Source of the DNA: a virus
Length of the DNA stretch: 64,000 bases
Reading direction: 5' to 3' (one strand)
UHGV virus genome: UHGV-1558314
Shown piece after piece: positions 4,801 to 64,000 of this stretch. Within the stretch, counting starts at the first letter, position 1. Each line of letters opens with the position of its first letter. The notes under the pieces are model-generated. The model was not told where the DNA came from and ran no database searches. It saw only the letters and a list, made by a program, of their open reading frames with translations. Position numbers and translations under genes: made by a program.

Positions 4801-5775
4801 TGCAATGCGCTCAACAATACCAGACAGTTCGGGCTTTGTGACCTTTGACTTGATTTTGATTTTATTGATGCGGCCAGGGTTGATGAGTGCAATCTTGTCT
4901 GTTTTGACATCATTATCAATTGTGATTGTATGATAATGCACAAGCTGCTCAAGTGGATGCCACTCTACCACAATTCGCTTGTTGTCAATATCGATGTCAA
5001 GCAAGTTGTAGCCATGTTCTGCAGTACCATGCTGTATTGCAGTGTCATTCAACAAATAGTCGCCTTCACCAAAATCTCTGACAATTGGCGAGCCGCAATA
5101 TGTTAATGTCTTATCACCAGCAACCCATATTGCATGCTTATGAATGTCACCCATTGCAACAAAGTTGCTATTAAATTGCATTGCATCTATACGACTGTCA
5201 TTGTCACCACGAACAATACAATCATCAAAGTTGACACAATTCTTTACAGGGTCATGGAACAGCTCAATGACACACATTGATGACAATGCTGCAATCTGCG
5301 ATTCATCAAGTGATGCCCAAGGCGAATATGTGCCACCAGACCACTTCTCATTTTGAGCCCATACTGCAGCAGCAAAACCAGGTGCAAGCAGTTCAACTCT
5401 TGAACTGTTGATATACTTGATTCGCTTGTCATCAATTGCAGTTACAAGCTTGTCAATGCTATCTGTCCACTGCATTTGTGAACCATCACCAGCATCAAAT
5501 GTGTTATCACGTTGCTTCAAATCATGATTGCCAGCAGTAATGACAATTTGAAGCTTGTCATTGACTTCAAGCATGCCTTTGAGCAGCTTAACAAACAGCG
5601 ACTCTTCAAGTGAATTGCTATTCCAATGCTCAAACACGTCGCCGACAATGAATACAAACTCAACTGACTTTGCTTTGTCAATTAGTTGTTTGTTGATGTG
5701 CTCATATTCTACGAAACGTCGTAAATGACCTTGTCGAACATTATATTGAATGTCTGCTATGTGAAGTGCTTTCAT
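1849..5775 (-). CDS. fused Mre11/SbcD-like nuclease and Rad50/SbcC-like ATPase
   Basis: N-terminal metallophosphoesterase motifs (LHIADIQ, GDVFEH, GNHD, GDIHKH); Walker A GNNGNGKTT; long coiled coil with CPVC zinc hook; C-terminal signature SGMEG, Walker B LLIDE, H-loop DHV. Confidence 0.8.
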   Translation of the reverse strand: MKALHIADIQYNVRQGHLRRFVEYEHINKQLIDKAKSVEFVFIVGDVFEHWNSNSLEESLFVKLLKGMLEVNDKLQIVITAGNHDLKQRDNTFDAGDGSQMQWTDSIDKLVTAIDDKRIKYINSSRVELLAPGFAAAVWAQNEKWSGGTYSPWASLDESQIAALSSMCVIELFHDPVKNCVNFDDCIVRGDNDSRIDAMQFNSNFVAMGDIHKHAIWVAGDKTLTYCGSPIVRDFGEGDYLLNDTAIQHGTAEHGYNLLDIDIDNKRIVVEWHPLEQLVHYHTITIDNDVKTDKIALINPGRINKIKIKSKVTKPELSGIVERIAQNLVSSYVVAAIDILYDSAVIDSINAVDANGDNLLQKVQTAEWLKDAALDWVNAYIERNAIVATEDAQQFVDMFKSLIDEQIDKLSFDTEVAKYVIQNVKANQFMALKDVDVSFDNLAQLTQVRGNNGNGKTTIFRLIKWLLTGFIDAEQSSAATKQNALTYFNDKLIDNESYDKLEASCVFVHVVAGQNVHYKLIRTLERKFKRGSRINADGSWRDNVSAVNETVQLVRLSDDYVVPQHEIKDTLYAIFGSIWELSRYVCINQTLLDQIIAMDSNSLNDWLLDTLGINTFVQLGNSNDAAKAALFDGLSKPALTDVAIKAELESLNTTCNELNYSLQLRQDNQKEWSAKLTKARAKVEELSKKLHQIPADILTIEDATANIDGIIAKIHKVELDIAALALQDMSKLQTAKAQIEQQLTNIDNEANTAYTNVIASGSQLHNTYAELLTKQNELSAKVQKEVAHAESLYRTKLDESKLAYDAAKQHIDSVLINLGKSYNANTRAKIDALQKQIEDINTVQNALRTEISAAKTNIDNVIDKQKQLENDKCPVCTNDLTSGTGQAYKLWLSTELAKLRQECAQKTEQFNENVVKIGNLKYEIEQLQAAIIDVTDSNAIIAALNPAHKAAYDMHAEKLNDLQRTVVNAQRDLDAFIAQPMATAATLLEVEAVKMQIADITNQLADIKRKAEQAKQDVLQSKSTVESELAAINAELEIAQAEYDKKATYESALKQLEIDKTAAAFALEHAQQTQQHITTNAALQVDIDDAKQHETEANSKLLSINAEIATMQADLSANNVRIEALKKDLQASKKWNIANLVYNAYKQCTSKRGLVSYVFAAIATSLNAQLNDLLDSLNYRVFFDINDNNVLKMIDLMGSKSIRSVSQMSGMEGTFAGLAIVHLILTQRLNKVGNILLIDEISGKLSNGQIVGAEHDVNNINYQQVLMQLLTKLSAIRKTLIVDHVLQQDEFDSALTVVANTDGTSSIC

Positions 5776-5795
5776 ATTCTAAATGAGATTTAGAT

Positions 5796-5846
5796 TATAT
5801 GTTGATATTGTACAACATGCAAAATGCACTTGCATTTTGATACAAC
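5796..5846 (-). promoter_or_regulatory. conserved intergenic motif copy 1 (putative promoter/operator) upstream of the Mre11-Rad50 gene
   Basis: tatatgttgatattgtacaacatgcaaaatgcacttgcattttgatacaac; contains palindrome TTGTACAA and inverted repeat CAAAATGCA-ct-TGCATTTTG; ends ~50 bp upstream of ATG 5775. Confidence 0.45.
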
Positions 5847-5854
5847 GTATGTCA

Positions 5855-6199
5855 TTATTTTGCAAGCATTTTGCTGATTGCATCTATCACAGTTTCACTG
5901 AGCAAGTAGTAGACAACGCTTATCAGCAATGATATCAGTACTGCAGCTGTGATAAATTGCAACGCATTCACAATTGCACGCACAAATGTTATCTGTGTGT
6001 TGTATGCAAGCACTATGCAGCATAGCACAATAATGACACACCAGACTACAATTGCATATGCAGGCATCAATGAATTTGTCCATATGCAGTACAATACAGT
6101 AGTTAGCATCAAAAATGCTATTGCTCTGATGACTGACACAATGATGTCTATGTAGAGCTTCATTACACGTAAATGAACTCTTGGCTTATGCGGTTTCAT
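5855..6199 (-). CDS. small multi-pass membrane protein (GtrA-like size and topology; speculative)
   Basis: Three to four hydrophobic helices. ORF-track start 6265 overlaps upstream gene; likely start at 6199 or 6163. Confidence 0.4.
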   Translation of the reverse strand: MKPHKPRVHLRVMKLYIDIIVSVIRAIAFLMLTTVLYCIWTNSLMPAYAIVVWCVIIVLCCIVLAYNTQITFVRAIVNALQFITAAVLISLLISVVYYLLSETVIDAISKMLAK

Positions 6200-20567: not shown

Positions 20568-21701
20568 CTACTTGAGCCCATTGATGAATGCTTCAGTTTC
20601 AGCATCCATCGTTGCTGCTGCAGGTGCTGCTGCTGGAGCTGCTGCAGGTGCAGGCTCTGCTGCAGGTGCTGAAGCTGCTGCAAACGGGTCAATAGCTGTC
20701 TGAGCTGCTGGTGCAGTAGCAGGCGCAGCTGCCGGAGCTGCTGCAGGTGCAGGCTGAGTAGTCTGTGCCTGCTGAGCTGCTGACGAATTGATGACAATGT
20801 CAGGCCAGATATCCGACACATCCTTGTAGTTAGCAAGGCGCATCTTAACCTGACGCTTGATGTCATCAGAAGCTTCGTGGTAGCCCCACTCCTTTTCGAC
20901 ATTCGGGTACTCCTTGAGCATGTCGACAATCTGCTGCATGATTTGCTGCTTGTATGCAGGGTCAGTGTCATACTTCGCCTGGTCAACAAGGCTGCCATCT
21001 GCAAGCAGCATCGACGATACGTTGGGCGAAATCGTCGAAGTCTCGTAGTCACGCATTTCAACGCCATTGACGTCTTTAAGCGTAATCTTCAAGAGAATGT
21101 CGTGGCCCTTAACAGGATGGAACATGTCCATAGGCTGAGCGCCCATTTGGATGTCTTCGTCGGTCGGCTTCATTGAGCTCAGCATTCTTTTATACAATGC
21201 AGCAGGGAGTCGATATGGGAGTACTTTCCCAACGTTCTCAGGGTGCACTGAATCAGCTTTGATTTGCACGAGGCAAGTGTACTGACTCTGCATACTGAAC
21301 TCTCGCTTTGCAAGCGCTTCCTGCTGAGCATCCTTGGTATTGATGAGTTCCCAGTAGAACGCCGAAATGGGGCACCAACCGTAGGGTTTCATCAAATTTT
21401 CCGGATTTTCAGGATGCGGATTAGGCGAGCTCGGCGAATTGTAGCGGAAGCCCTGATTATGGCCAGTTGCAAACCAGTAATAACGAACGATTGAAATCGG
21501 TACTGCTGGGTCTGCTAAATTCGGCAATACGCGAATAACTGCACGATAAACTTTGTCCTTTGGCGAATCCTGCGGCTTAGGATTGAAGAACTCAGGTCCT
21601 GCAGAACGTTCCGGCTTAGCAAAGCTTGCTACATTGTCCGGCTGGACATCAAAGATTGACAGCGGCTGATTACCGGTCTGTCCATTTTCAATTTGTGACA
21701 T
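20568..21701 (-). CDS. hypothetical protein with C-terminal Ala/Pro-rich low-complexity tail
   Basis: Canonical ATG at 21701; C-terminus APAAAPAAAPATAPAA...APAAEPAPAAAPAAAPAAA encoded by GCTGCTGCAGGTGC-type nucleotide repeats. Confidence 0.5.
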   Translation of the reverse strand: MSQIENGQTGNQPLSIFDVQPDNVASFAKPERSAGPEFFNPKPQDSPKDKVYRAVIRVLPNLADPAVPISIVRYYWFATGHNQGFRYNSPSSPNPHPENPENLMKPYGWCPISAFYWELINTKDAQQEALAKREFSMQSQYTCLVQIKADSVHPENVGKVLPYRLPAALYKRMLSSMKPTDEDIQMGAQPMDMFHPVKGHDILLKITLKDVNGVEMRDYETSTISPNVSSMLLADGSLVDQAKYDTDPAYKQQIMQQIVDMLKEYPNVEKEWGYHEASDDIKRQVKMRLANYKDVSDIWPDIVINSSAAQQAQTTQPAPAAAPAAAPATAPAAQTAIDPFAAASAPAAEPAPAAAPAAAPAAATMDAETEAFINGLK

Positions 21702-21852: not shown

Positions 21853-22989
21853 TTATCTTGCATGACCGCAATCGTACACTGCAACATAACCAGCATCAAT
21901 CATAGTCTGTTCATCTTGACCACAGTCTTCAATGTGCTCTTTTGTCTTCAAATGACACCAGTGCTTACGAATTGTTGACTTGTCATCTGACAGTTGCGGA
22001 TTGAGCACAAAATCAGTTGAGTCTACTTGTTCACCTGCAAGATGCTTTCTAATGGCGTCAATGACTTCGTTGTCATCCATCCATTCGAATATTGTAATGC
22101 AAGTGTAGCCATGTTTGAGAGCAAGTTGAGCTTTGTCGAAGTGGTAGAATTTGCCAACTGGCTTATTGTGTTTTGTGCGCCCAGTTAAATATGCAAAGCC
22201 ATATGTTGCATTGTGTGACCAAAGAGGATTAACTTCAATCAAAAGTTTGCAGTGTTCATTACAATAATCAAGGTCATATGACCATCGTCCAAGATTGACA
22301 TTATCAAGCCCGCAATCAATACCAAGTTCTTGCAGCAATTTGTCATGCCACCAATGGTTTGTTTGCGATTTTATATGACCTTGAGCATTACGGCATTTAG
22401 TAGTCATACAAAACCATGGCACACCATGTCGTTCCATATTGACTTCTTGAACGCGTTCAAGATTGCCGCTCTTATTGCCATAACGTTGCTGTTTTGTTTG
22501 CAATGCAGCATCAATATTGCCCCATGCATTGCCATATCGTTTTACAACAGTTTGTCTACGTTTTTCAACATCACAGCACTTATTGCCATATTTACGCAAT
22601 TTAGTGTCAAATGCTTTTTGTGTATTGCCTACGCCACGTTTGACCCATTTGCGCTCTTTGCCTTGTTGACATCGTTCTTGGTTACCCCATGTGCTGCCAT
22701 ATCGTTCTAAATTTGTTTGTCTACGTTTTTCAACATTGCCTGCTTTGCATCCATATCGTGCTAAATTTGTTTGTTGTTGTTTAGCTACGCAATCTTTGTT
22801 ACGTGCAGGAAATTCAACGCCTAATGAACGTAGACAGCCAATTCTACGATTATAATTACGTTTAATATTGCCGTGTGATGTTTTACAAGGCCCATATCTT
22901 ACAAACTCAGTTGTTCTCAACAACTCATCTCGCTCTTGCTCAAGCTCTGCAATGCGCTTCTCAAGAGCTTCACCAGTTAGTGGCGTCAT
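21853..22989 (-). CDS. homing-endonuclease-like protein: tandem ~20-aa RYG-x4-GN repeats plus Vsr/DUF559-like (PD-(D/E)xK) nuclease domain; paralog of 63182..63886
   Basis: About 7 repeats (NLARYGCKAGN, LERYGSTWGN, LRKYGNKCCD, VKRYGNAWGN, QQRYGNKSGN, MERHGVPW); C-terminal DLDY...KLLIEVNPLWSHN...LALKHGYTCITIFEW. Confidence 0.5.
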   Translation of the reverse strand: MTPLTGEALEKRIAELEQERDELLRTTEFVRYGPCKTSHGNIKRNYNRRIGCLRSLGVEFPARNKDCVAKQQQTNLARYGCKAGNVEKRRQTNLERYGSTWGNQERCQQGKERKWVKRGVGNTQKAFDTKLRKYGNKCCDVEKRRQTVVKRYGNAWGNIDAALQTKQQRYGNKSGNLERVQEVNMERHGVPWFCMTTKCRNAQGHIKSQTNHWWHDKLLQELGIDCGLDNVNLGRWSYDLDYCNEHCKLLIEVNPLWSHNATYGFAYLTGRTKHNKPVGKFYHFDKAQLALKHGYTCITIFEWMDDNEVIDAIRKHLAGEQVDSTDFVLNPQLSDDKSTIRKHWCHLKTKEHIEDCGQDEQTMIDAGYVAVYDCGHAR

Positions 22990-23741
22990 TTCACTTCAGG
23001 TTTTGCTTGCTTGGCCAACTCAGCTTCAGCATTGAACTCTTTGCCCTCAGCTTTCATTGTTTCAGCATAAGTCTTTTCATCAGTGTAACGTTCTACGTCA
23101 TCACCAAGCAGTTTTGCAACTTCATCATCTGCTTCAAACAATGGCTGTGGATTGTCATCATTGTCATCTTTGAGTTGCTCAAATGTGCTGTTATGCTTTT
23201 CTGCAATTTTGATGAGGTCAACGATTGAACGAGTTACGAGTTCACCATTGATGCCTGACTGTTGTTCAGATTGACCAGAGCCTTGTTGCAATTCTGCTTG
23301 AGTTGCTCGAACATTATTATTGAGTGATGCAAGTACATTGGGAAGAGTTCGACAATATGATATATACTGCTGAACCAACGACATTGCATCATTCTGCAGT
23401 TTGATGAGAAATGCAAACTCACCCATGCCTCCGCCTTGTGCATCAATGCGCTCGAATACTGAATCAAGTGCATGCATTGCATAGAACACTTGTTTGCAAA
23501 GTAAATTGATGTTTGTCTTCTCCATCTCGATTGATGCATCGATAAACGGTGACTTAACATCTGCTGCTATGCACAATTTGCGAACTTCGTCAACATATTT
23601 TGAACACTTGTCAAGTGTCTTGTCAAGTTTGCTTCGGTCAAACTGCTTGTAAACTTCTAATGCATCGCTTACTTCTGCAGCATCCAATATTGCATTTGCT
23701 GCAGCCAATTCTGATTCTCTGCTCATCTCAAAATGGTCCAA
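22986..23741 (-). CDS. hypothetical acidic protein
   Basis: 251-aa ORF. Confidence 0.45.
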   Translation of the reverse strand: MDHFEMSRESELAAANAILDAAEVSDALEVYKQFDRSKLDKTLDKCSKYVDEVRKLCIAADVKSPFIDASIEMEKTNINLLCKQVFYAMHALDSVFERIDAQGGGMGEFAFLIKLQNDAMSLVQQYISYCRTLPNVLASLNNNVRATQAELQQGSGQSEQQSGINGELVTRSIVDLIKIAEKHNSTFEQLKDDNDDNPQPLFEADDEVAKLLGDDVERYTDEKTYAETMKAEGKEFNAEAELAKQAKPEVK

Positions 23742-27136: not shown

Positions 27137-27616
27137 TTATTCATTATCGTCATCATATCCCATGCAATCTTCAAGACTTGCAAAGTCATCATCAAAGTCA
27201 TCGAATTCAGGCTCTTTATTGCACCATTTGTAAGGTGGATTGTTGAGCAATTCAAGCTCTATTGCATTTGACTGTGCAGAAATCGGAACATATTCGAATG
27301 CTTCGACTGACATATCAAATTTGATGCAATGCAGCCACGGAAACATATCAGTGTCCTCATGCACAATGGGCTGACGAACGTAGTCTTTCATTGCAATGAA
27401 CTTGCTGCTGTTGTCCCAGTCTTCAATAGGAATTTCAAACTGTGATATGGTCGTATGACAATCGTCAAAGAAATTGCAGGATACGCCTACAATAACGTGC
27501 GTGTCTGTACGTTGACGTTCTATTGCAAGAAAGTCGTGTTTCTTGGAAAGATGAACTTCTCCATGCTTCTCTAAAAAGATTTTAAGAAGCTCTTTGTTAA
27601 TGTCATTGATATTCAT
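27137..27616 (-). CDS. hypothetical acidic protein
   Basis: 159-aa ORF with Asp/Glu-rich C-terminus. Confidence 0.4.
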   Translation of the reverse strand: MNINDINKELLKIFLEKHGEVHLSKKHDFLAIERQRTDTHVIVGVSCNFFDDCHTTISQFEIPIEDWDNSSKFIAMKDYVRQPIVHEDTDMFPWLHCIKFDMSVEAFEYVPISAQSNAIELELLNNPPYKWCNKEPEFDDFDDDFASLEDCMGYDDDNE

Positions 27617-27638
27617 TGCTGTAGAGATTTTATGATGT

Positions 27639-27950
27639 TTAATACTGAGTTTTTGCAGATATAGCTACTTTAATTGCTGCTTTAATTTGTTCGATTGCAT
27701 CTTGTGAGAACAATTCTGGCACTGCTAAATAGTGATACCATGATGTTGGCGCTGCCTGCATATCAGTTCGTTTAATTGCGAACCGAAGTTCTTTTGGTGA
27801 ACCAAGGCAACCCATATATTGGCAGCTTATTAGCTTAACTTGCACATTGTTAATGCTGCTATGAATAGCAAGATGAGACAGATTTATTCTGTCATAGAAT
27901 TTTAGATGCTTGAGTTGTTTTTCAATTGCTTTGAATGCGTTTGTATTCAT
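27639..27950 (-). CDS. hypothetical protein
   Basis: 103-aa ORF; last minus-strand gene before the plus-strand cassette. Confidence 0.4.
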   Translation of the reverse strand: MNTNAFKAIEKQLKHLKFYDRINLSHLAIHSSINNVQVKLISCQYMGCLGSPKELRFAIKRTDMQAAPTSWYHYLAVPELFSQDAIEQIKAAIKVAISAKTQY

Positions 27951-28015
27951 TGTTGTAGAGGTTTGTATACTATATTGATATATGATAATTGTACTACAAA
28001 TTTATCAAATTTGCA

Positions 28016-28133
28016 CTGATTTAATATATAATATGTCAATAAATTTCACATATAAAGTCTTTTCGCTTATGAAAACTACTCAACTCTGGTTTGAACGCCA
28101 GCAGTCAATCGCGGGGGGGCTCTTCGTGACACA
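28016..28133 (+). repeat. promoter/leader module, copy A (inverted partner at 31048..31160)
   Basis: About 113-118 bp near-identical to the reverse complement of 31048..31160, with 2-3 mismatches/indels by eye in the upstream part; contains ATG 28069 and G7 tract. Confidence 0.8.
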
Positions 28134-28185
28134 GGCATGCGCATATACGTGCGTGACAATGCTGATAACATTGTTAATGGGCTAA
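28069..28185 (+). CDS. leader ORF (MKTTQLWFERQQSIAGG...) containing a G7 tract; overlaps 28137..28769 in the -1 frame
   Basis: ATG 28069; G7 at 28113-28119; stop at 28185. The frame of 28137..28769 is open from 28095 (TPAVNRGGALRDTGMRIY...). Confidence 0.4.
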   Translation: MKTTQLWFERQQSIAGGLFVTQACAYTCVTMLITLLMG

Positions 28186-28769
28186 CTTGCTATTTGCACT
28201 GTATTGAAACAGGTCGAACACTTCAAAGAGACTTGCACACAAGCAATAATGGTGATGGCGTCACATTTTACATAACTGGTGATGACTATAAGCAATTAGT
28301 CGGCTCAACAAAAGACGCACAATTTTATCTTATTGACACGCCTGATGCTGCAGATATGTCTTGGTCATCTGCAGCATTTACACTTAGATATGGCGCAGAT
28401 ATAGTTAACAACACACTAAATGTCAATATTGAAGCGTTCAAATCATGCGAAGTAACAATAACTAACAGTGGCAATACATGCAGTTGCACCGCAATGCTTG
28501 AATCTGCATTGCCAGTGGCAATTAAACTGTCAACAATTTGCAATACATCAGTAGCATCTAATGTCGATGTGTCAGTTAACATAGCTGCAAATAGCTTGAC
28601 TGCTAATTTTAGAGTTGGCAATAGCTTATCTGCAAAATTGACGCATGTCGGCATATGGTCTATTGCTAATGCTTCTTATGTTTCACCAATATATGAGGGT
28701 GCTATAATTGTGAAAACACTGAACGACATATTTCACGTGTTCATAACAGATAAGACAACACTTGGCTAA
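28137..28769 (+). CDS. cassette protein 1 (210 aa), Ser/Thr/Asn/Val-rich; function unknown
   Basis: ORF on the rare plus strand, directly after conserved leader copy 1. Confidence 0.55.
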   Translation: MRIYVRDNADNIVNGLTCYLHCIETGRTLQRDLHTSNNGDGVTFYITGDDYKQLVGSTKDAQFYLIDTPDAADMSWSSAAFTLRYGADIVNNTLNVNIEAFKSCEVTITNSGNTCSCTAMLESALPVAIKLSTICNTSVASNVDVSVNIAANSLTANFRVGNSLSAKLTHVGIWSIANASYVSPIYEGAIIVKTLNDIFHVFITDKTTLG

Positions 28770-28804
28770 GTGTACATATCTTACAACATTCAAACATATA
28801 GCAT

Positions 28805-28858
28805 ATGAAAACTCCACAATTTTGGTTTGAGCGTCAACAAGGGCTAGCGGGGGGGCTC
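28805..28858 (+). repeat. diverged third copy of the leader module
   Basis: atgaaaactccacaattttggtttgagcgtcaacaagggctagcgggggggctc versus copy A; upstream part not conserved. Confidence 0.6.
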
Positions 28859-28861
28859 TAA
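28805..28861 (+). CDS. leader ORF copy 2 (MKTPQFWFERQQGLAGGL*) with G7 tract
   Basis: ATG 28805; G7 at 28849-28855; stop TAA at 28859-28861; about 75 percent nt identity to leader copy 1. Confidence 0.3.
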   Translation: MKTPQFWFERQQGLAGGL

Positions 28862-28898
28862 ATTAGTCTACCTGCAACTTGTTATTGGCGACGCTTCG

Positions 28899-29327
28899 TT
28901 GTACAACTTTGGCACTACTGAAACAATGGCGATACAAGGTACAATATCGCTTGACAATGTCACAGTTAACATACCAACGTCAGGCTTTCCTATCAAAATG
29001 ATGGAATGCCGCGGTGGTGAAACTCATGCAATTGGTGCGTTAATGATGCCAAAAGCTTATGACTACTCAAACTTTGCTGCAAAAATTGGTTTTGGCTGCT
29101 ATGCAGCAGATGGTCGTGGCACTGGCAACGTTTACAACATCAATGTGTATGCCAACATTAACAACACAAGCCCTGGTGGTAATCCCATACTGTTAACTTC
29201 TATGGCATGGCAATATCCATTAGGCGTTGGTGATAAGCTTACATTGCCAATGTCAAATCCATCTGTCAAAGTTAACAATGGAGATATCGTGTCAATCATA
29301 CTTAAGAATGCAAGGAAAGTCAGCTAA
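28899..29327 (+). CDS. cassette protein 2 (142 aa; ATG start probably at 28926)
   Basis: ORF-track start is TTG at 28899; in-frame ATG at 28926 (MAIQGTISLD...). Frame is +1 relative to leader copy 2. Confidence 0.5.
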   Translation: MYNFGTTETMAIQGTISLDNVTVNIPTSGFPIKMMECRGGETHAIGALMMPKAYDYSNFAAKIGFGCYAADGRGTGNVYNINVYANINNTSPGGNPILLTSMAWQYPLGVGDKLTLPMSNPSVKVNNGDIVSIILKNARKVS

Positions 29328-29351
29328 CTGACAGATGCATCACATATAAGC

Positions 29352-29390
29352 AATGCTCCACTGAGAAATCTCAGTGGAGCATTTTTTGTG
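29352..29390 (+). terminator. rho-independent terminator between convergent genes 28899..29327 (+) and 29412..29822 (-)
   Basis: 14-bp stem aatgctccactgag / ctcagtggagcatt, loop aaat, then TTTTGTG on the plus strand. Confidence 0.65.
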
Positions 29391-46987: not shown

Positions 46988-47884
46988 TTACAGTGTTCCG
47001 CAAAGCAATTCACGTAAATCCATGCCGGCTTGTGTACTGTACTGAGCAATAAGATTACGTTCTGAATCAGACATACTCCAATAAATCTTATGCAGAGCTC
47101 TACGAATAATAGTATGAATGCCAGATGTGCTACAATTGAACTTCTTTGCAAGTTCTGCATGAGTTAACAAATCAGCATCGCCAAGGCCATACACATGTGT
47201 GAGTACAAGCTTTTCATTTTGAGTGAGTTGTTCAAATGCTCTTTGCAGAATCTTTGTGATACGTTTGTGAGCATCTTCGATTTCAAGAACTTCTTGGCCT
47301 GTTTTGAAGTCTGACCTCAAATCATTCTGAACTGGTGACCATGCGTCACCATCTTTGTCAAGTGTAGTGTCATCCTTGCTGATGAATTGCTTGCCTTCAA
47401 GAGCTCTTTCATATGCTCCACGAATACCAGTAGATAATTGTTGACTTGTCAGATTGAGTTCGTCAAGCACATATTTCTTAATCCAAGGATATGCATATGT
47501 GCTAAACTTTGCTTCACGAACTCCTGCAGGCAATACGCCTTCTACGTAATTCTTGGCTGCTATTGACAATCCAAGATTGCCTGCTTGAATGACGTCATCA
47601 AATGGAACCGAGCGTTTGCCAGATGCGAACCATAAGCTTCGTGCAACTGATATGACCAATCTTAAACAAGATTTGATAAGAGCTTCACGATTTTCTTGAG
47701 TCTTCTTGAATCGAGTAACATCACAATATCGCTTTGCAGTAGCCAGCGATTTGACTTCTTCAGGAGTAAGCTCATTCTCCATCCTCATTTGCTTGAGCTC
47801 TTCCTTTGTGTATAGACGTTCTCTTGTGATTCTACCTACGTCCTTTACGTAGCCTTGATTGATTTGTGAATTTGAACCTGCCAT
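46988..47884 (-). CDS. sigma-70-family RNA polymerase sigma factor
   Basis: Region-2-like LRLVISVARSL...FDDVIQAGNLGLSIAAKNY; region-4 helix-turn-helix LTQNEKLVLTHVYGL...LTHAELAKKFNCSTSGIHTIIRRALHKI. Confidence 0.75.
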   Translation of the reverse strand: MAGSNSQINQGYVKDVGRITRERLYTKEELKQMRMENELTPEEVKSLATAKRYCDVTRFKKTQENREALIKSCLRLVISVARSLWFASGKRSVPFDDVIQAGNLGLSIAAKNYVEGVLPAGVREAKFSTYAYPWIKKYVLDELNLTSQQLSTGIRGAYERALEGKQFISKDDTTLDKDGDAWSPVQNDLRSDFKTGQEVLEIEDAHKRITKILQRAFEQLTQNEKLVLTHVYGLGDADLLTHAELAKKFNCSTSGIHTIIRRALHKIYWSMSDSERNLIAQYSTQAGMDLRELLCGTL

Positions 47885-48017
47885 GGTTGTGTAACTTATT
47901 TAGTTTTAATTTGTTATATAAATTTAATCATTTTTTGTCACATATGAAAATGTTTTGCACATTATTGTCACATAAAGTGTAAAAAAGTTATGAACATTTT
48001 GTTAACACATGTAGACA

Positions 48018-49640
48018 TCAAACCATTTCATTCAACTTGTCGACGTTCTTTTTAGCGTCTGCACTTTGTACAAATGCATAGACATTATCATAGACTTTGC
48101 TAATTGCTGCATCTGTGTAATCATAGAAGCTGTGTCGAGTTCTTGAAGTTCTGCCACCTTTGATGCCAAGTGATGCTTTGTCAGAATCTGATGGTTTCCA
48201 ATATGTTCGTCCAAACCCCGTAGATAGAATCATACTTTCCACGCCAGACCTATCTCGTGGCATAGCATGTTTCAAATGGCAAGTTACAATGAAGTCAGTT
48301 GGAAAGTCATCATAGCCAAGCTCACTTGATGCAGGTTGAATGTCAGTCTTCGTTAAGATAAGATTGCCAATGCTTGCTATGGGTCGAAGTGGGTTTCCTA
48401 ATAGCAAGTGCCATTCGCCGATGGCGTCGCCCTTCAACAAACTATTCATAACAGGAATTGCTGGTCGACCAATAGTGTTCAAGAATTTCGCAACAGCAAA
48501 ACGTTGAAATGCAAGTTTAGCAATCTGCTGCAATTTTTGTTTTGCTGCTTCTTTTCCACCTCCGCTTGCATTCATAATGTTTTGAGCAATGCCTTTGAAG
48601 AAGTCTGTGATTGAGTTGAATGAACCATCAAGCGCATCTTGAATGATTGTAGATTCAAGTTCAAGTGCTTTGTTCCAGAATACTGATGGTTGACCGCCAA
48701 CCCAGTAGCGACCACCTCCCCAAAAACGCGCGTCATTGTATGTGCATTGCATCACATTGCTCAACAAGTCAAGCATTGCTGTTTTGGGATTGATTCCATC
48801 AATCGACTTCAATGAATAAAAGAATTTGACAGTCAATTCATGCTCAAAGTTCAAGCCGACATCACGAATATGCGTTTGTGTAATTGAATCAATTGGGCCA
48901 TAGACTTTATTGTGGTCATGTGTCGGGTCTATTGACAGTCGTGCTTTGCCACGCATTTGGTCTTTTGCATACACTGGGTCCATCAATTTTGCTACTCGGC
49001 CCATCCAGCCACTGATGCCATAATTGCCTCCACTGTCACCACGCATTTCGCCTTGCTCCAATGCAGCAGACAATTCTTTCCAACGCATGCCAAAACTGAA
49101 GCTCAACAAATCTTCAAGTTTGTTGTTTTCACCATCAAACCACGTAATCATATGAGCGATTTCAGGTGTTTGCTGAACTGTTGTGTTGAAGATGTCATCT
49201 TGACATGGCTCAGCAAATCTGCGCAATGTTATGAGTCTGTTGTTTGGGATTTGACCAAGAAATCTGCAATATGCAAAGTCTTGCCAATCGTATGTTGATG
49301 CGCCAATGGGGTTGTTAATGATATTTGCTGCAGTAGGCGTCAAGTATTGCAGGCCTTGCAAGTCTTGGTCAAAGTACACAGTTTTGCCATCAGGCAATTG
49401 CGGTGCTGCAAATAGATTCCATGCATTGAACAAAGACTGCACACCTTGTTTTGATGCATCTTCTGCACCACGAGGCATATCAGCATTGAGTTTCTTTTCA
49501 TAAAACCCGTGCTCATAATCTGTCTCTTGTGCAAATGCGCCTGTCAATGTGCTATTATCTGCATTGAGCTTATTGTCTTTTGGCGGAGCTATTGTAGCCA
49601 TATCTTCAAATGTATTTAGGATATGTACCAAACATAACAA
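48018..49640 (-). CDS. hypothetical protein, probable virion protein
   Basis: 540-aa ORF; start may be the internal MATIAPPK. Confidence 0.45.
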   Translation of the reverse strand: MLCLVHILNTFEDMATIAPPKDNKLNADNSTLTGAFAQETDYEHGFYEKKLNADMPRGAEDASKQGVQSLFNAWNLFAAPQLPDGKTVYFDQDLQGLQYLTPTAANIINNPIGASTYDWQDFAYCRFLGQIPNNRLITLRRFAEPCQDDIFNTTVQQTPEIAHMITWFDGENNKLEDLLSFSFGMRWKELSAALEQGEMRGDSGGNYGISGWMGRVAKLMDPVYAKDQMRGKARLSIDPTHDHNKVYGPIDSITQTHIRDVGLNFEHELTVKFFYSLKSIDGINPKTAMLDLLSNVMQCTYNDARFWGGGRYWVGGQPSVFWNKALELESTIIQDALDGSFNSITDFFKGIAQNIMNASGGGKEAAKQKLQQIAKLAFQRFAVAKFLNTIGRPAIPVMNSLLKGDAIGEWHLLLGNPLRPIASIGNLILTKTDIQPASSELGYDDFPTDFIVTCHLKHAMPRDRSGVESMILSTGFGRTYWKPSDSDKASLGIKGGRTSRTRHSFYDYTDAAISKVYDNVYAFVQSADAKKNVDKLNEMV

Positions 49641-50895: not shown

Positions 50896-53800
50896 TTATC
50901 GTACGATGAATGGCTTGTTGGTATCTTCAATAATCATTGAGCCAATGCCATGCAACTCTTGAGTAACCTCGACAGATACGTCTTGTGCAGTGTTGTACGA
51001 GCACTTGAATGCTGCAACTCGACTAAATGCGTCAATGTCTGAGTAACTGAGTTCATCGACTTGCATTGAGATTTCACCAATTGCTGGCGTAGTCTTTGAT
51101 GGCGTAATTGTGATGTCATGCAGCCAACCCGGATTGCCAACTATGACTGCTGTCAATGATTCGCCATCAATAGGATTGACGATTTCATAGTTGAAGTTTA
51201 GTGTCTTTGCAGCATCATCAGTTGTTGCTGATGCAGGTGTAATGTTGATTGTTGTTACGCCTTTAGCAGCTTGAACAACTTGTGCAGTGACATCTTGAGC
51301 ATTGATGTGAGAGAACTTAACTGAGCAGCTACGTTGTTCTATCGTTAAGTTGCGGTCACATTCAATAGTCAAGTAGCCCTTGCCAGTATTGTCATCGTAT
51401 TCGAAGTTTGTGTCAGTAAATGTGCCGTCATTATCAAGAACTTCATATGACAATTGCTGCCCTGCAATTGGATTACTAACAGTGATTTCGAATTGTGCTT
51501 GAGTGTCAGTTGACTTCAATTGAGCATTCATTGGCTCAACAATTATCATTGATACACCTTGAGCTGCTTGTGTGATGCTGACCGTTACATTGTCAGCAGT
51601 CATGTATGACAGTCTCAAGTATAAGTTACGAGTAGCTGTTGCAGTGTTGATGTCAAGCGCAAATTGTATTGTGCCAGCTGACATGTTTACTGCAGGTTCG
51701 CCAACAAAGCCAGAGCCCTCTGCTGTAACTGTTAATGTTTCGCCTTCAATAGGATTAGTGATGCTAAAGTTAACTGTGAACGAACCGCCATTAGCTGCTG
51801 CGTTGATTGTCAATGGTTCAGCATTGATGACTGTAGCTTCTTTAGCTGCTTGAGTAAGCAATACTGCTACATTGTCAGCAGTTGGATATTGCAGTACAAT
51901 ATTTGCTGTACGAGCAGTTGTTTGCAATGTCTTGTCATAATCAAATGTAATCTTGTCATCAGCAACTTGAACGTTGTGAATCCAACTTTCTGTAGCATAT
52001 GCAGTGACTGCTGCACCAGCAAAGCCATTACGAATTTGATATGCAATTTCAGCTGAACCACCAGCTGCATTAAGTGACATAGAGCTTGTGACAATGATTT
52101 CGGGTCTTGTTGAAACACCTGTGCTGTATTGAACAACAGAAGCTATTACACGAGGCTCAAATATAACAGCATTTGCAGAACCGCCAAATGTAGGTGTTGC
52201 AATCACATAGATTGGCCAAACTCCACTTGATGCGACATTACGTAAGATTGCTTGATAATGCAGTTCATTGCATGCATCTTGCAATTCACTCCACGTTTTT
52301 GTAGTGTCAATTGATGTCAAGCATGCTGGCAATACTGCGCATGTTGATGGCTTATCAGCATCAATTTGTGTTGCAGCACCACCTGATACTGGTCTGTAAC
52401 TCAAGTCGACTTTAACAGATGCATAGCCATTGCCATACACAATAAATGGCACTGTGATATCGAGCAAAATATCTACAGTTGCAGGCATGTTCAGATATGC
52501 TGGCAGTGGTACAAGCGTTTGCATTGCTGTCGTGCCTGGCACATGGTCATCGAATGATTCAACATACACAGGTGGTGTCAAGTCATCTTTATGCGCATAT
52601 TCTGCATGAGTGTGGTCTGAATGTGATACTGTGCTTGCATAACCAGACCCAGCAAAGTCTTTATTGAATGCAGACTTCTTTGCTTCTTCAGTCAATCTGC
52701 CGGAGCCATCATATGTCAGCACAGTATTTGATGAGCCAATACCTGCCGCAAGATGATTTGAGCCATCAATGAAGACATGCTTGTATTGACGTTCAAACAA
52801 ATGAGCATCAAAATTGTCAAATATCGAATTGAACAACTTTTTGACTGCAGATGCTGTAGGCAGATGCTTGTTTGCATTTGCGCCATCGATAATGATGCTT
52901 GACCAATTGTCTGAGCTCTTGAAGATGCTAAGAAGCATATCAACAACTTTGCCAGTAGCATCTGTGCCAAGAACACTTGCACCGGGCAGTTTCATCAATT
53001 GCAAGTCGACTGTTGCAGCAAGTTTAAGCAACTGCTTTGTCAATGTCAGAATGTCTGTGACAACTCCAGCATCTGACAATGCTGCAATGCGATATGACTG
53101 ATTGATGAGTTGCGCAAACTTATATGCACGAATGAATGACTCTCGCTTTGCTTCTGCATCCAAGCCTTTTGCCAAGAACAACTCATCATATTTCAGATTT
53201 GCATATGACAATATGTCAAGCTCATTGACTGCAGATGTAAAATGATTGCGAAGTCTAATGCCCTCATATGACTGCCACAATGCAGCCAAATCAGCAAATG
53301 ACTTGACATGTGAATCATCTGATGCAAAGCCAAATACAAGACCACTGTTAAAGTCATTTTGCAGCAGCATATGCGGAAAAGCATCAATGCCTGGCAACTG
53401 ATTCTTTTTGTCTGCATCAAGACGATTCAGTGTTCGTTGTGTGAGGTCGTAATAGTAATATGGATTGCCCAATATCTGCATAACTGGCTTTGCTACTTTG
53501 TTGTTTGCATTGCCAAGTCCATCGATTTGTGTATCACTCGGTGCAAGCAGAATAACTGAGCTGTCAACGTTATTGTATCGAGGCACGCTTTCAAGCCCTA
53601 TTGACAACGCACCTGTATGCTTGTTTGAGTAGTTGTTGTCGATTTCTGCGCCAGGCTGCCCGTCTGCAGCAATGTTGAACATTGCTGCATATGACTTGAT
53701 TGTGCCGCCATACTTTGTTTTGATGAGCTCTTCAATGATTTGCGTAATGATGACATTCAAGTTATCATTGTCACTTGTCAGCAATTGCAAGCCCGTAAAT

Positions 53801-54303
53801 TGCCACCATTGAGCATCATTTGATGATGCATCATACCAGTACACCTTGCCATCTGGTGCAATGACCCAGTCTGCGTATGACAAAGCGTCTGTATGCAAAA
53901 TGTTGCAAAACGCAGGTTTGTTTGCATCTGAACAGAACTCATTGAATGCTGCAGCATCGACAACTTTTGCAGTACCTGCGTCATTTTGCGTAGCTGACCA
54001 ATCACTGCCAAACACTGTATTTATATCAGCAAGTGATGCGTACATAATGCGGTTGCCTCGATAGCCATCGAAGCCAGGCAAGCCACGGTCGCCAGTTTCA
54101 CCAATGCGACCCTTAAATAGGGGTGAATTCACAATTCTACTGAAATTGTAATTCAAAATTTCACACAACTCTGCATAAGATGTGACTTGAAGTTTTTTCA
54201 GTACAATTGGCTGTGCTTTATGTTCTGCAGACATGTTGTTCAGATATTTTGCTTTGTATATGTATTCGAGACTTTGTTGAGAATCGTCTGTCACTATGTG
54301 CAT
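50896..54303 (-). CDS. tail-fibre-like protein with short collagen-like Gly-X-Y run and C-terminal tandem Ig/BACON-like repeats
   Basis: GRIGETGDRGLPGFDGYRG (6 Gly-X-Y triplets); repeated units ...ADNVTVSITQAAQG / ...AQDVTAQVVQAAKG. Confidence 0.55.
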   Translation of the reverse strand: MHIVTDDSQQSLEYIYKAKYLNNMSAEHKAQPIVLKKLQVTSYAELCEILNYNFSRIVNSPLFKGRIGETGDRGLPGFDGYRGNRIMYASLADINTVFGSDWSATQNDAGTAKVVDAAAFNEFCSDANKPAFCNILHTDALSYADWVIAPDGKVYWYDASSNDAQWWQFTGLQLLTSDNDNLNVIITQIIEELIKTKYGGTIKSYAAMFNIAADGQPGAEIDNNYSNKHTGALSIGLESVPRYNNVDSSVILLAPSDTQIDGLGNANNKVAKPVMQILGNPYYYYDLTQRTLNRLDADKKNQLPGIDAFPHMLLQNDFNSGLVFGFASDDSHVKSFADLAALWQSYEGIRLRNHFTSAVNELDILSYANLKYDELFLAKGLDAEAKRESFIRAYKFAQLINQSYRIAALSDAGVVTDILTLTKQLLKLAATVDLQLMKLPGASVLGTDATGKVVDMLLSIFKSSDNWSSIIIDGANANKHLPTASAVKKLFNSIFDNFDAHLFERQYKHVFIDGSNHLAAGIGSSNTVLTYDGSGRLTEEAKKSAFNKDFAGSGYASTVSHSDHTHAEYAHKDDLTPPVYVESFDDHVPGTTAMQTLVPLPAYLNMPATVDILLDITVPFIVYGNGYASVKVDLSYRPVSGGAATQIDADKPSTCAVLPACLTSIDTTKTWSELQDACNELHYQAILRNVASSGVWPIYVIATPTFGGSANAVIFEPRVIASVVQYSTGVSTRPEIIVTSSMSLNAAGGSAEIAYQIRNGFAGAAVTAYATESWIHNVQVADDKITFDYDKTLQTTARTANIVLQYPTADNVAVLLTQAAKEATVINAEPLTINAAANGGSFTVNFSITNPIEGETLTVTAEGSGFVGEPAVNMSAGTIQFALDINTATATRNLYLRLSYMTADNVTVSITQAAQGVSMIIVEPMNAQLKSTDTQAQFEITVSNPIAGQQLSYEVLDNDGTFTDTNFEYDDNTGKGYLTIECDRNLTIEQRSCSVKFSHINAQDVTAQVVQAAKGVTTINITPASATTDDAAKTLNFNYEIVNPIDGESLTAVIVGNPGWLHDITITPSKTTPAIGEISMQVDELSYSDIDAFSRVAAFKCSYNTAQDVSVEVTQELHGIGSMIIEDTNKPFIVR

Positions 54304-54321
54304 TTTGCATTCAGTCTATCA

Positions 54322-58119: not shown

Positions 58120-58124
58120 GTCTC

Positions 58125-62127: not shown

Positions 62128-63150
62128 TTACAAAAGTTCCGATTCGAGATTTTGAACTGGTTGAAAAATCTGCTTGATTCCCTCTGGAAATCGAAACGGG
62201 GCTTCACCCTCCATGTGACACTTCGGGCAAGTGAACTTGATATTGTTAGATGCAAGAATCATGCACTTAGACAGAATCTTCAGTTTAAGCGGCAATTCTT
62301 TGAATGCATCCATTGCTTGGAACGATTGACAAATTTGCTCAGCTTTCTTGACATTAAGACCTCGCCAATCAGGTGTAAGCCATTGAGCTGCAAGAATATA
62401 TGTCTTTGCATTCATCAATGTATCTTTGTCAAGTGTTCGCATGTACTCTGCAAAAACTTTGCCAACACCAATTGTCGACGGCTTGAGTACGAGTTCGCCA
62501 TACGAACGAGTTTGAACTCGATAGCAGCCGGTTTCAGAATCAATGTATTTGTCCATTGATTCATCGGGCTCATCCCAAGTCATGTTATCAGCAGTCAAGT
62601 CAAGCTTGAAATTATGCTTGCAAGTGCCTGATGAAATTTCCAGCGTAATTGGGTTTGTCAGCTCAGAGTTCTCAGGGAATGTGAGGTCGTGAATCAACAT
62701 TATTAAGCGCCACTTGTCGTGTTCGTATACATCATCAACTGACCAATGATTCATGCCGGACTTGCTGACACATCGAACACACACCTTAACAATGTCGTTC
62801 AAATATGTTGCTGCTTCAGCTGGATTTGCATTGTCATCAAGATTAGACCAATGACGAATTTCACCTGCTCGGCAAGCTCGATAGATAATTTGCAAATCAC
62901 TTGGGTACAGTCGACCTTGCTTAGCAAGCTTCGTCATGTCAACATTGAACCAGCCAGTGTCTGTAACTTCTGATTGACGTGCTCTTTCTGCAATACGCTC
63001 TTGAGCTACTTCAGTTGCAGCGTCAATTGCGCTGTCATTGATTTTTGTAGCTGCTTCAGCTTCTTCTACTGCAGATGCAAGTGGATTGTTTCGACCTGCA
63101 TTCTCACCACCATCTGCTGGAATGCTAAGACGTTTTCTTTCTTGTGGCAT
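62128..63150 (-). CDS. hypothetical protein (start trimmed to ATG at 63150)
   Basis: Internal ATG (MPQERKRLSIP...) avoids a 74-nt overlap with 63182..63886. Confidence 0.45.
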   Translation of the reverse strand: MPQERKRLSIPADGGENAGRNNPLASAVEEAEAATKINDSAIDAATEVAQERIAERARQSEVTDTGWFNVDMTKLAKQGRLYPSDLQIIYRACRAGEIRHWSNLDDNANPAEAATYLNDIVKVCVRCVSKSGMNHWSVDDVYEHDKWRLIMLIHDLTFPENSELTNPITLEISSGTCKHNFKLDLTADNMTWDEPDESMDKYIDSETGCYRVQTRSYGELVLKPSTIGVGKVFAEYMRTLDKDTLMNAKTYILAAQWLTPDWRGLNVKKAEQICQSFQAMDAFKELPLKLKILSKCMILASNNIKFTCPKCHMEGEAPFRFPEGIKQIFQPVQNLESELL

Positions 63151-63181: not shown

Positions 63182-63886
63182 TTATATATTTGACAACTGT
63201 TTGCGTTGTAAAATTGCATGACCGCAGTCATATACTGCAACATAGCCAGCATCAATCATCTCTTGCTCATTTTGTCCGCAGTCTTCAACATGTTCTTTTG
63301 TCTTCAAATGACACCAGTGTTTGCAAATAGTTGACTTGTCATCTGACAATTGTGGATTGAACGCGAAGTCAGTTGAGTCTACTGGTTCGCCTGCAAGATG
63401 CTTTCGAATGACATCGATGACTTCATTGTCATCCATCCATTCAAATATTGTTATGCAAGTGTAGCCATGCTTAAGAGCAAGCTGAGTTTTGTCGAAGTGA
63501 TAGAATTTGCTAACATGCTTATTGTGTGTAGTACGGCCAATTAAATATGCAAAACCATATGTTGAATTGTGTGACCAAGTTGGATTGATTTCAATCAATA
63601 ATTTGCAATGTTCATTACTGTAATTGAGGTCATATGACCATCGCTCAAGATTGACATCATCAAGCCCACAATCAATCCCAAGTTCTTGCAGCAATTTGTC
63701 ATGCCACCAATGGTTTGCTCGTGATTTTACATGACCTTGAGCATCACGACATTTAGCAGTCATACAAAAATATGGGACACCATAGCGTTGCATGTTAGTT
63801 GACGCAATTTTTTGCAAATCGCCTGCAGCAGACCCATATTTTTGTCGTTTTGTTGCAACTGCTACTGCAATATTGCCAAATGACAT
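63182..63886 (-). CDS. homing-endonuclease-like protein (short RYG repeats plus Vsr/DUF559-like nuclease domain); paralog of 21853..22989
   Basis: C-terminal ~170 aa are about 90 percent identical to 21853..22989 (WWHDKLLQELGIDCGLD...KLLIEINPTWSHN...); two QKYG/QRYG repeats at N-terminus. Confidence 0.5.
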   Translation of the reverse strand: MSFGNIAVAVATKRQKYGSAAGDLQKIASTNMQRYGVPYFCMTAKCRDAQGHVKSRANHWWHDKLLQELGIDCGLDDVNLERWSYDLNYSNEHCKLLIEINPTWSHNSTYGFAYLIGRTTHNKHVSKFYHFDKTQLALKHGYTCITIFEWMDDNEVIDVIRKHLAGEPVDSTDFAFNPQLSDDKSTICKHWCHLKTKEHVEDCGQNEQEMIDAGYVAVYDCGHAILQRKQLSNI

Positions 63887-64000
63887 CTATATACTTTAAT
63901 GTACCAAACTGGAAATAGGCTATCCTAATGCAAATATAGGATTTTTCTTTGAAAATCCATATTCAAGGTAAAATACAAGTCATTAAAAGTCAACCATAAC

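Follow-up and report, generated by a model that had tools for sequence, protein, structure and literature searches.

Putative free-standing Hef-like homing-endonuclease genes in an uncultured gut phage: a copy with a DUF7487 repeat array and a remnant split by an IS1595-family element

We consider it probable that the uncultured phage of ~175 kb studied here carries free-standing homing-endonuclease genes of the Hef-like type, whose products would combine an array of DUF7487 repeats with a following Vsr-fold nuclease domain of the EDxHD type. The window, i.e. the whole stretch of 64,000 nt that was analysed, is the last 64 kb of a 175,395-bp contig assembled with MEGAHIT. It harbours two related ORFs on the minus strand, hereafter A and B, which lie about 41 kb apart at the positions that had been noticed in an earlier note on this DNA (Table 1). 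Judged by their sequences, A and B are Hef-like/EDxHD free-standing homing endonucleases, a known class of enzymes. The view of the earlier note that they represent free-standing homing endonucleases is supported by the Hef-like architecture and by the finding of sites that are empty, replaced or occupied among related phages. Neither of the two results that the note had named as speaking against it, i.e. genes fixed in all relatives or a nuclease domain lacking support from the fold, was encountered.

The phage possesses a T4-type terminase, and among cultured phages Chryseobacterium phage MA9V-1 comes nearest to it (at 40%). Three consecutive genes of 1,135, 1,265 and 1,240 aa (window 50896-61847) occur in all sibling phages and have no Pfam matches in precomputed tables; a crAss-like phage, first assumed from these genes of about 1,200 aa, was ruled out by the terminase and by MA9V-1 as the nearest cultured relative. 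No tRNAs were found in the window, a scan of it for promoters and terminators remained at chance level, and cultured phages yielded no megablast match to the region. The gp32-like SSB gene downstream of A ends in an Ala/Pro-rich low-complexity tail (window 20568-20760, AAAPAAAPATAPAA...) and has a GC content of 51%, compared with 41% for the window.

Table 1. Location of the putative homing-endonuclease genes, their parts and their surroundings in the window
Feature	Position	Strand	Remarks
gp32-like SSB gene	20568..21701	-	downstream neighbour of site A; PF08804
ORF A	21853..22989	-	intact, putative Hef-like homing-endonuclease gene, 378 aa; phrog_3339 'homing endonuclease' match 3.7e-10
A residues 321-378 + stop codon, small C-terminal beta domain	21853..22029	-	ends in conserved VYDCGHA
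A residues 196-320, Vsr-fold (EDxHD-type) nuclease domain	22030..22404	-	from profile and fold
A residues 57-195, DUF7487 array	22405..22821	-	7-8 units of 18 aa
A residues 1-56, N-terminal part	22822..22989	-	helices 6-26 (long) and 38-56; model pLDDT >93
251-aa ORF	22986..23741	-	upstream neighbour of site A
Empty third site	48008..48015 (8 nt)	.	between 540-aa gene (48018..49640) and sigma-like 298-aa gene (46988..47884)
340-aa gene (phrog_36717)	62128..63150	-	downstream neighbour of site B
Copy B	63182..63881	-	3' 232 codons of P0004-type (424-aa) Hef-like gene
ORF B as called	63182..63886	-	234 aa
Target-site duplication copy, ATTTGGCA (8 bp)	63874..63881	-	window junction and reciprocal junction in P0350
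IS1595-family element end, 119 nt	63882..64000	.	ATG of 234-aa ORF (63884-63886) lies in IS end; contig ends here

Gene A occupies the space between the 251-aa ORF and the SSB gene (site A), and its ATG overlaps the TGA of the upstream ORF (ATGA). An AlphaFold2 model, for which 83 homologues served as input (mean pLDDT 93), comprises an N-terminal helical part, seven helix-loop units at residues 65-188, an alpha/beta domain at residues 197-317 and a small beta domain at residues 342-372. In the N-terminal part I13, L16 and L24 are nearly invariant among homologues, and residues 1-56 could possibly play a role in dimerisation. A single-sequence search of the PDB and a search of NCBIfam yielded nothing useful.

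In the model, each unit of the array is built of a 12-residue helix and a 6-residue loop with the motif YGxxGN, and the glycines of the YG anchors fall at residues 57, 80, 98, 119, 135, 153, 171 and 189. The repeat array of the earlier note is thereby confirmed, with 7-8 units bearing YG anchors, although its period is 18 aa (54 nt) and not about 20 aa. Direct DNA repeats with a spacing of 54 nt were recovered at 22457-22760 by a repeat search, two of the units being 84% identical over 55 nt, despite the fact that Tandem Repeats Finder reported no tandem repeat in the DNA. Pooling 199 canonical units from the close clade yields the consensus [VI]xKxxxTKxxRYGNxxGN, in which K3, T7, K8, R11, Y12, G13, N14, G17 and N18 are conserved and positions 1, 4, 5, 9, 15 and 16 are highly variable. 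The number of canonical (18-residue-spaced) units per protein ranges from 2 to 13 among close homologues.

The array had previously been regarded as unassignable to any named family; it corresponds in fact to Pfam DUF7487. ORF A itself reaches 25.2 bits, just below the threshold of 27, which is passed by its close homologue P0003 and by the L006 allele (28.4 and 29.5 bits), and scores of 142-204 bits, along with matches to MTES_1575, are seen in relatives reached at E = 1e-28 to 1e-10. To our knowledge, Pfam describes no function for DUF7487. With a pI of 10.0 and 30 K+R among its 139 residues the array is strongly basic, compared with a near-neutral nuclease domain, and from this composition and the conservation of the units we presume it to be a DNA-binding module. 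Neither a NUMOD nor an HTH motif was found by Pfam in A or B.

The proposal of a Vsr/DUF559-like C-terminal nuclease gained support from both fold and profile. A search of the nuclease profile against the PDB (hmmsearch) returned 3r3p as the sole match (E = 0.0025), and hhalign aligned the domain with I-Bth0305I at a probability of 95.7% (E = 9e-9); for the latter comparison D196 and H213, the two residues mutated to inactivate the crystallised I-Bth0305I, were put back into the crystallised double-mutant sequence (PMC3239194). Foldseek against the PDB produced only weak matches, with E above 0.06. In the alignment D239 of A pairs with D196 of I-Bth0305I, E252 with E206, N254 with N208 and H259 with H213. 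The family shows no variation at D239 and H259, and hardly any at E252, H283 and K286. Where the EDxHD motif has its last Asp (D222 in I-Bth0305I, D97 in Vsr), both alignments place the near-invariant H283, and since this His is conserved across the whole clade it should be regarded as a family trait and not as decay. The domain shows the Vsr-type variant of the PD-(D/E)xK fold as well as detectable homology to I-Bth0305I, in whose family 'bacteriophage Hef type homing endonucleases' have already been placed (PMC3239194).

Homologues of A likewise carry DUF7487 together with REase_MTES_1575 (Pfam), and the family is large, with 1,176 representatives at 50% identity reaching E <= 1e-3. Matches in BFVD and in PHROGs (phrog_3339) agree on the assignment to homing endonucleases. 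Among annotated phage proteins, the one nearest to A is a 'putative homing endonuclease' of Escherichia phage ZQ1 (Ackermannviridae). It is encoded between the tail tube and tail sheath genes, contains DUF7487 (1e-24) and MTES_1575/DUF559, and is related to entries of 411 phage records, labelled 'Hef-like homing endonuclease' in some cases and 'nuclease/acetyltransferase' in one. In the related phage LIMEstone1, the gene adjoining the tail tube gene is the Hef-like F-LimVIII; the ZQ1 protein sits at the genome position called Hef-like in the LIMEstone paper and has the same two domains. The link of A to the Hef of phage U5, which is reported to cleave nrdB (PMC2988022), runs via annotation and this Ackermannviridae homologue. 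The Hef-like architecture, i.e. a DUF7487 array followed by a Vsr/MTES_1575/DUF559 nuclease, is found in A with a sub-threshold DUF7487 score and in close homologues with scores above the threshold.

Longer relatives (P0032-P0082, 480-650 aa) show a GNAT/Mom-like domain between the nuclease and the C-terminal VYDCG strand (profile positions 407-489, alignment A3). The naming of this domain follows from a weak match to glyphosate N-acetyltransferase (E = 0.025), a weak Pfam match to Mom and the single 'nuclease/acetyltransferase' record in GenBank.

The proteins A and B can be aligned without gaps (BLASTP, A155-377 with B2-224), with 177 of 223 residues identical (79%, E = 4e-144), and no third copy was detected in the window with tblastn. 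At the DNA level the identity is 82% over the 669 shared nt, composed of 87.5% in the nuclease (375 nt), 84.8% in the C-terminal domain (171 nt) and 61% in the two shared repeats. An identity of 85-90% over more than 500 bp, as had been estimated before, thus applies to the 3' 546 nt, and the full shared length stays at 82%. Between A and B the repeats have a dN/dS ratio of 0.70, against 0.15 in the nuclease and 0.07 in the C-terminal domain. The reading frame of A is unbroken and evolves under purifying selection. The ratio of 0.70, together with the mosaic alleles described below, shows the array to be the fast-evolving and recombining part of the gene, next to a conserved nuclease.

The second copy had been described as a paralogous gene. 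It is indeed homologous to A, but represents the 3' fragment of a 424-aa gene that is broken by an insertion sequence (IS). Copy B retains the last two repeats, a full nuclease domain in which every conserved residue is present, and the C-terminal domain. Compared with the 3' part of the intact gene, present as P0004 in sibling phages, the first ~410 nt are identical, followed by 19 differences (19/696 nt overall). A naturally short paralog was ruled out, as the homology to this 424-aa allele ends at 63881 and the ATG of the called ORF is supplied by the IS end. The remaining 119 nt are unrelated to the gene; their outer 24 nt occur twice, in inverted orientation, as the bounds of a 2,555-bp element in Alistipes timonensis JC136 (L020/L021; NZ_FNRI01000001.1, 109,863-112,417), one end of which is ~93% identical to all 119 nt. 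The Alistipes element has perfect 28-bp terminal inverted repeats and a transposase with the domains DDE_Tnp_IS1595 (PF12762, 3.8e-38) and zinc ribbon (PF12760, 1.2e-14), features that were tested on this relative, as the phage copy shows 119 nt only.

The reciprocal junction is present in P0350, a cluster mate of B from a 60.9-kb contig, in which the 5' half of the gene ends with ...KRYGNKFG and continues with RHLYTLMYQT. Its tail YGNKFGRHLYTLMYQT is the exact translation of the gene's 5' half, ATTTGGCA and the inverted IS end, and because it matches this join, the insertion is taken to have made the 8-bp duplication ATTTGGCA. Duplications of 8 bp are typical of the IS1595 family (PMC12561309). 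The characters of that family were found as a whole, i.e. the transposase and zinc ribbon in the Alistipes relative, the terminal inverted repeats in the Alistipes copy, and the 8-bp duplication as reconstructed from the two junctions. Copy B is, as read from these junctions, the 3' remnant of a full-length paralog inactivated by an IS1595-family insertion.

The same IS was observed at another position in an IMG/VR sibling, beside DNA equivalent to window 27146-29386, and at the ends of two other viral contigs (viral copies L022, L023 and L024); the Alistipes IS and the viral copies are 90-93% identical over 0.5-1.7 kb. Its presence at a different site in the sibling and at the ends of other viral contigs suggests that the IS moves within this phage lineage. 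Furthermore, an IS shared with Alistipes provides a lead to the host of the uncultured phage, which is probably Alistipes or a related member of the Bacteroidales. The Alistipes element contains a 270-aa passenger ORF on its minus strand (1605-2417 of 2,555 bp) with weak matches to BNR-like repeats, and no obvious 8-bp duplication was seen in the Alistipes or L023 copies at the assumed boundaries. When viral and metagenome contigs were scanned for exact matches, neither a longer piece of the IS end nor a pattern across the junction turned up.

Sibling phages (174-181 kb) have flanks 92-99% identical to those of the window and a backbone that is ~95% identical, and they differ at exactly these endonuclease loci. 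The comparison of insertion sites with relatives, as advised in the earlier note, revealed that the genes are not fixed: free-standing, intergenic and polymorphic between related phages, they were met at three sites as empty, occupied or replaced alleles. At site A, where the window holds A, the allele of the IMG/VR sibling is 95% identical to A, that of L004 (P0002) 72% and that of the 181-kb sibling (P0011) 51%. P0002 is a mosaic with regard to A, with 98% identity in the first 60 nt, ~50% in the array and 97-100% in the 3' part, over the seven 60-nt blocks that follow (~420 nt), and DNA homology between P0011 and A begins only at about codon 257. The sole empty site A was seen in L012, whose SSB is 76% identical; there the stop codon of the 251-aa ORF homologue is directly followed by the intergenic region ahead of the SSB gene, the indel thus coinciding with the endonuclease ORF. 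All close relatives seen (~95% backbone) have a gene at site A.

In the siblings, site B is flanked by the 340-aa gene and, in divergent orientation, by the large terminase gene, and three alleles were found here: the 424-aa allele P0004 in several siblings, a member only 38% identical to A in the IMG/VR sibling, and the disrupted allele of the window. More distant relatives have no family member at this site. In one of them (L011, terminase 54% identical) a 389-aa gene (4844-6013), whose product has an N-terminal domain like the TnsA endonuclease, fills the slot upstream of the terminase; here a different nuclease family is found in the same neighbourhood as site B. The third site is empty in the window and is filled in the 181-kb sibling by an insertion of 1,023 nt with the 352-aa member P0018, between flanks that are 93-99% identical to the window. 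The start codon of P0018 is contributed by the end of the gene upstream, and its stop lies in the common downstream sequence. One sibling genome has three paralogs. The divergence of the flanks was examined for co-conversion, and no clear gradient was apparent beside the genes.

Further alleles from other assemblies include frameshifted versions of both gene types (cluster members P0344, P0345/P0347 and P0361), two of whose breaks lie within a few nt of where the IS inserted (AACAAATTTGGC) or, in the A-type gene, at the homologous boundary between repeats; such alleles may reflect real decay or homopolymer sequencing errors. Several alleles end in a duplicated C-terminal motif (...YDCGHAKLLADDCGHAR), namely P0352/P0353 (388 aa), P0006, P0017 and P0021 (see also L005 5850-5900), and no allele of the site-A cluster is commoner than the 388-aa form, which occurs on 56 contigs. 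This duplication may be the footprint of recombination at the 3' junction. Taken together, the polymorphic sites, the replaced and frameshifted alleles and the dN/dS values of A and B form a pattern that fits invasion, replacement, decay and loss, as expected of free-standing homing-endonuclease genes.

In the mechanism that we propose, the basic repeat array would lay the protein along the DNA, and the Vsr-like domain, with D239, E252, N254, H259 and H283, would cut a site in genomes devoid of the gene. By analogy with I-Bth0305I the enzyme probably acts as a dimer, and cleavage would be Mg-dependent, as extrapolated from I-Bth0305I and Hef. During co-infection, recombinational repair from the endonuclease-carrying genome would then copy the gene into the intergenic slot. 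Several observations sit less easily with homing. Site A is always occupied among relatives with a ~95% backbone and its only empty counterpart comes from the more distant L012; the flanks lack a clear co-conversion gradient; ORF A scores just under the Pfam threshold for DUF7487; and the last Asp of EDxHD appears to be replaced by the near-invariant H283. The translational coupling of A to its upstream gene and the purifying selection would also fit a domesticated nuclease, and the very different arrays at the same site are hard to square with an array that alone sets a common target. Such unrelated arrays at one site imply either that the affinity provided by the array is largely non-specific, as has been proposed for the NUMOD region in I-Bth0305I (PMC3239194), or that different alleles cut different nearby sequences.

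According to one alternative, the family would represent a domesticated phage nuclease that no longer homes and acts for the benefit of the phage, e.g. in degrading host or competitor DNA, excluding co-infecting relatives or stimulating recombination, the paralogs being an ordinary gene-family expansion. Strong purifying selection on the nuclease and C-terminal domains, the overlap of the start of A with the upstream stop, an occupied site A in every close relative seen and the spread of the commonest site-A-cluster allele over 56 contigs all agree with it. A required function, however, would not be expected to show the clean presence and absence found at site 3 between nearly identical flanks, nor does it suit the replacement of alleles at sites A and B, the frameshifts in other alleles or the copy destroyed by an IS, so that we regard domestication as unlikely. 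The opposite extreme, in which both copies are dead relics, i.e. decaying homing-endonuclease genes without remaining activity at the end of a cycle of invasion, degeneration and loss, seems quite improbable. It could draw on the splitting of B by the IS, on the frameshifted alleles elsewhere, on one repeat of A that has lost its anchor glycine (WV in A versus WG in P0001) and on the His in place of the last motif Asp. Yet A is open over its full length, has all the residues that are invariant in the family, evolves at dN/dS ratios of 0.07-0.15, and shares H283 with its whole clade.

That the proteins are Vsr-type mismatch-repair nickases or restriction-like defence nucleases, and not mobile elements, we hold for extremely unlikely: the long repeat array, the dispersed multi-copy distribution and the polymorphic sites speak against it, and the sequence is closer to I-Bth0305I than to Vsr. 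With regard to copy B, its truncation might be an artefact of assembly of a gene that is intact in the real genome, as the contig stops exactly 119 nt past the breakpoint and 119 nt is the k-mer size of the assembler (MEGAHIT). We consider this very unlikely. Every junction k-mer of a de Bruijn contig must occur in the reads, the 119 nt are a genuine IS end with ~93% identity to the Alistipes IS1595-family element, and the reciprocal junction with its matching 8-bp duplication comes from an independent contig; a contig end after exactly k nt of IS is what would be expected at the branch node of a multi-copy IS in the de Bruijn graph. An artefact, or a large inversion, was set aside once the reciprocal junction and the Alistipes element had been found.

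The reading that we prefer, Hef-like homing endonucleases of which A is intact and B disrupted, allows one further speculation, which we rate as improbable. The DUF7487 array could form a solenoid that reads DNA in modules, each repeat supplying one helix, in which the face of K3, T7, K8 and R11 would lie on the backbone and positions 1, 4, 5, 9, 15 and 16 would read bases, and the swapping or resizing of arrays would retarget a constant nuclease. The pattern cited for it is the exchange of the array on a constant nuclease between A and P0002, along with arrays of 2 to 13 canonical units. If true, this would constitute a natural, compact, TALE-like programmable nuclease scaffold. A fast-evolving, recombining array combined with a conserved nuclease is a reasonable candidate for the study of DNA-recognition modules. 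For the phage lineage, which is represented by many public assemblies, two 'hypothetical proteins' can now be read as a putative Hef-like homing endonuclease and an IS-disrupted remnant, and three hot spots of genome variation are marked beside the SSB gene, the terminase gene and the sigma-like gene. The uncharacterised Pfam family DUF7487 becomes linked to the EDxHD/Hef class, and the lineage offers an apparent example of an insertion sequence that moves in large phages with a T4-type terminase.

Among known systems, the IS1595 family is matched by the Alistipes relative, with its DDE_Tnp_IS1595 and zinc-ribbon transposase and inverted repeats of ~28 bp, and by the 8-bp duplication of the insertion described here; of the phage copy 119 nt are visible, whereas the Alistipes copy spans 2,555 bp with a passenger gene. 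The Vsr mismatch endonuclease (1CW0), DUF559 and RAP domains have the core fold and the Asp/His catalytic positions in common with A, but Vsr is, unlike A, a single-domain repair nickase with neither a repeat array nor mobility. I-Bth0305I, of the EDxHD family, is intron-encoded and has two NUMOD2/HTH motifs; by contrast, the genes described here are free-standing, and their products have a helical DUF7487 array (7-8 units in A), a conserved His (H283) where I-Bth0305I has D222, and an extra C-terminal beta domain. The seg and mob genes of T4 lead the same lifestyle, as short intergenic genes that are present or absent between related phages and as nuclease genes that swap at one locus, although their catalytic folds (GIY-YIG and HNH) are unrelated to the nuclease of A. 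The Hef-like proteins differ from A in sequence, with identities of only 24-27%, and in lineage, as the phage studied here is a Bacteroidales gut phage; moreover, most annotated Hef-like proteins are 480-650 aa long with a GNAT/Mom-like domain after the nuclease, a domain that the proteins here lack. Nevertheless, the Hef-like set, which includes U5 Hef, the LIMEstone genes F-LimIII, F-LimVII, F-LimVIII and F-LimX, and 'Hef-like' genes of Campylobacter, Acinetobacter and Klebsiella phages, has the same architecture as A, and its genes, like those presented here, are free-standing, intergenic, found in several copies per genome and placed next to conserved replication, packaging or structural genes.
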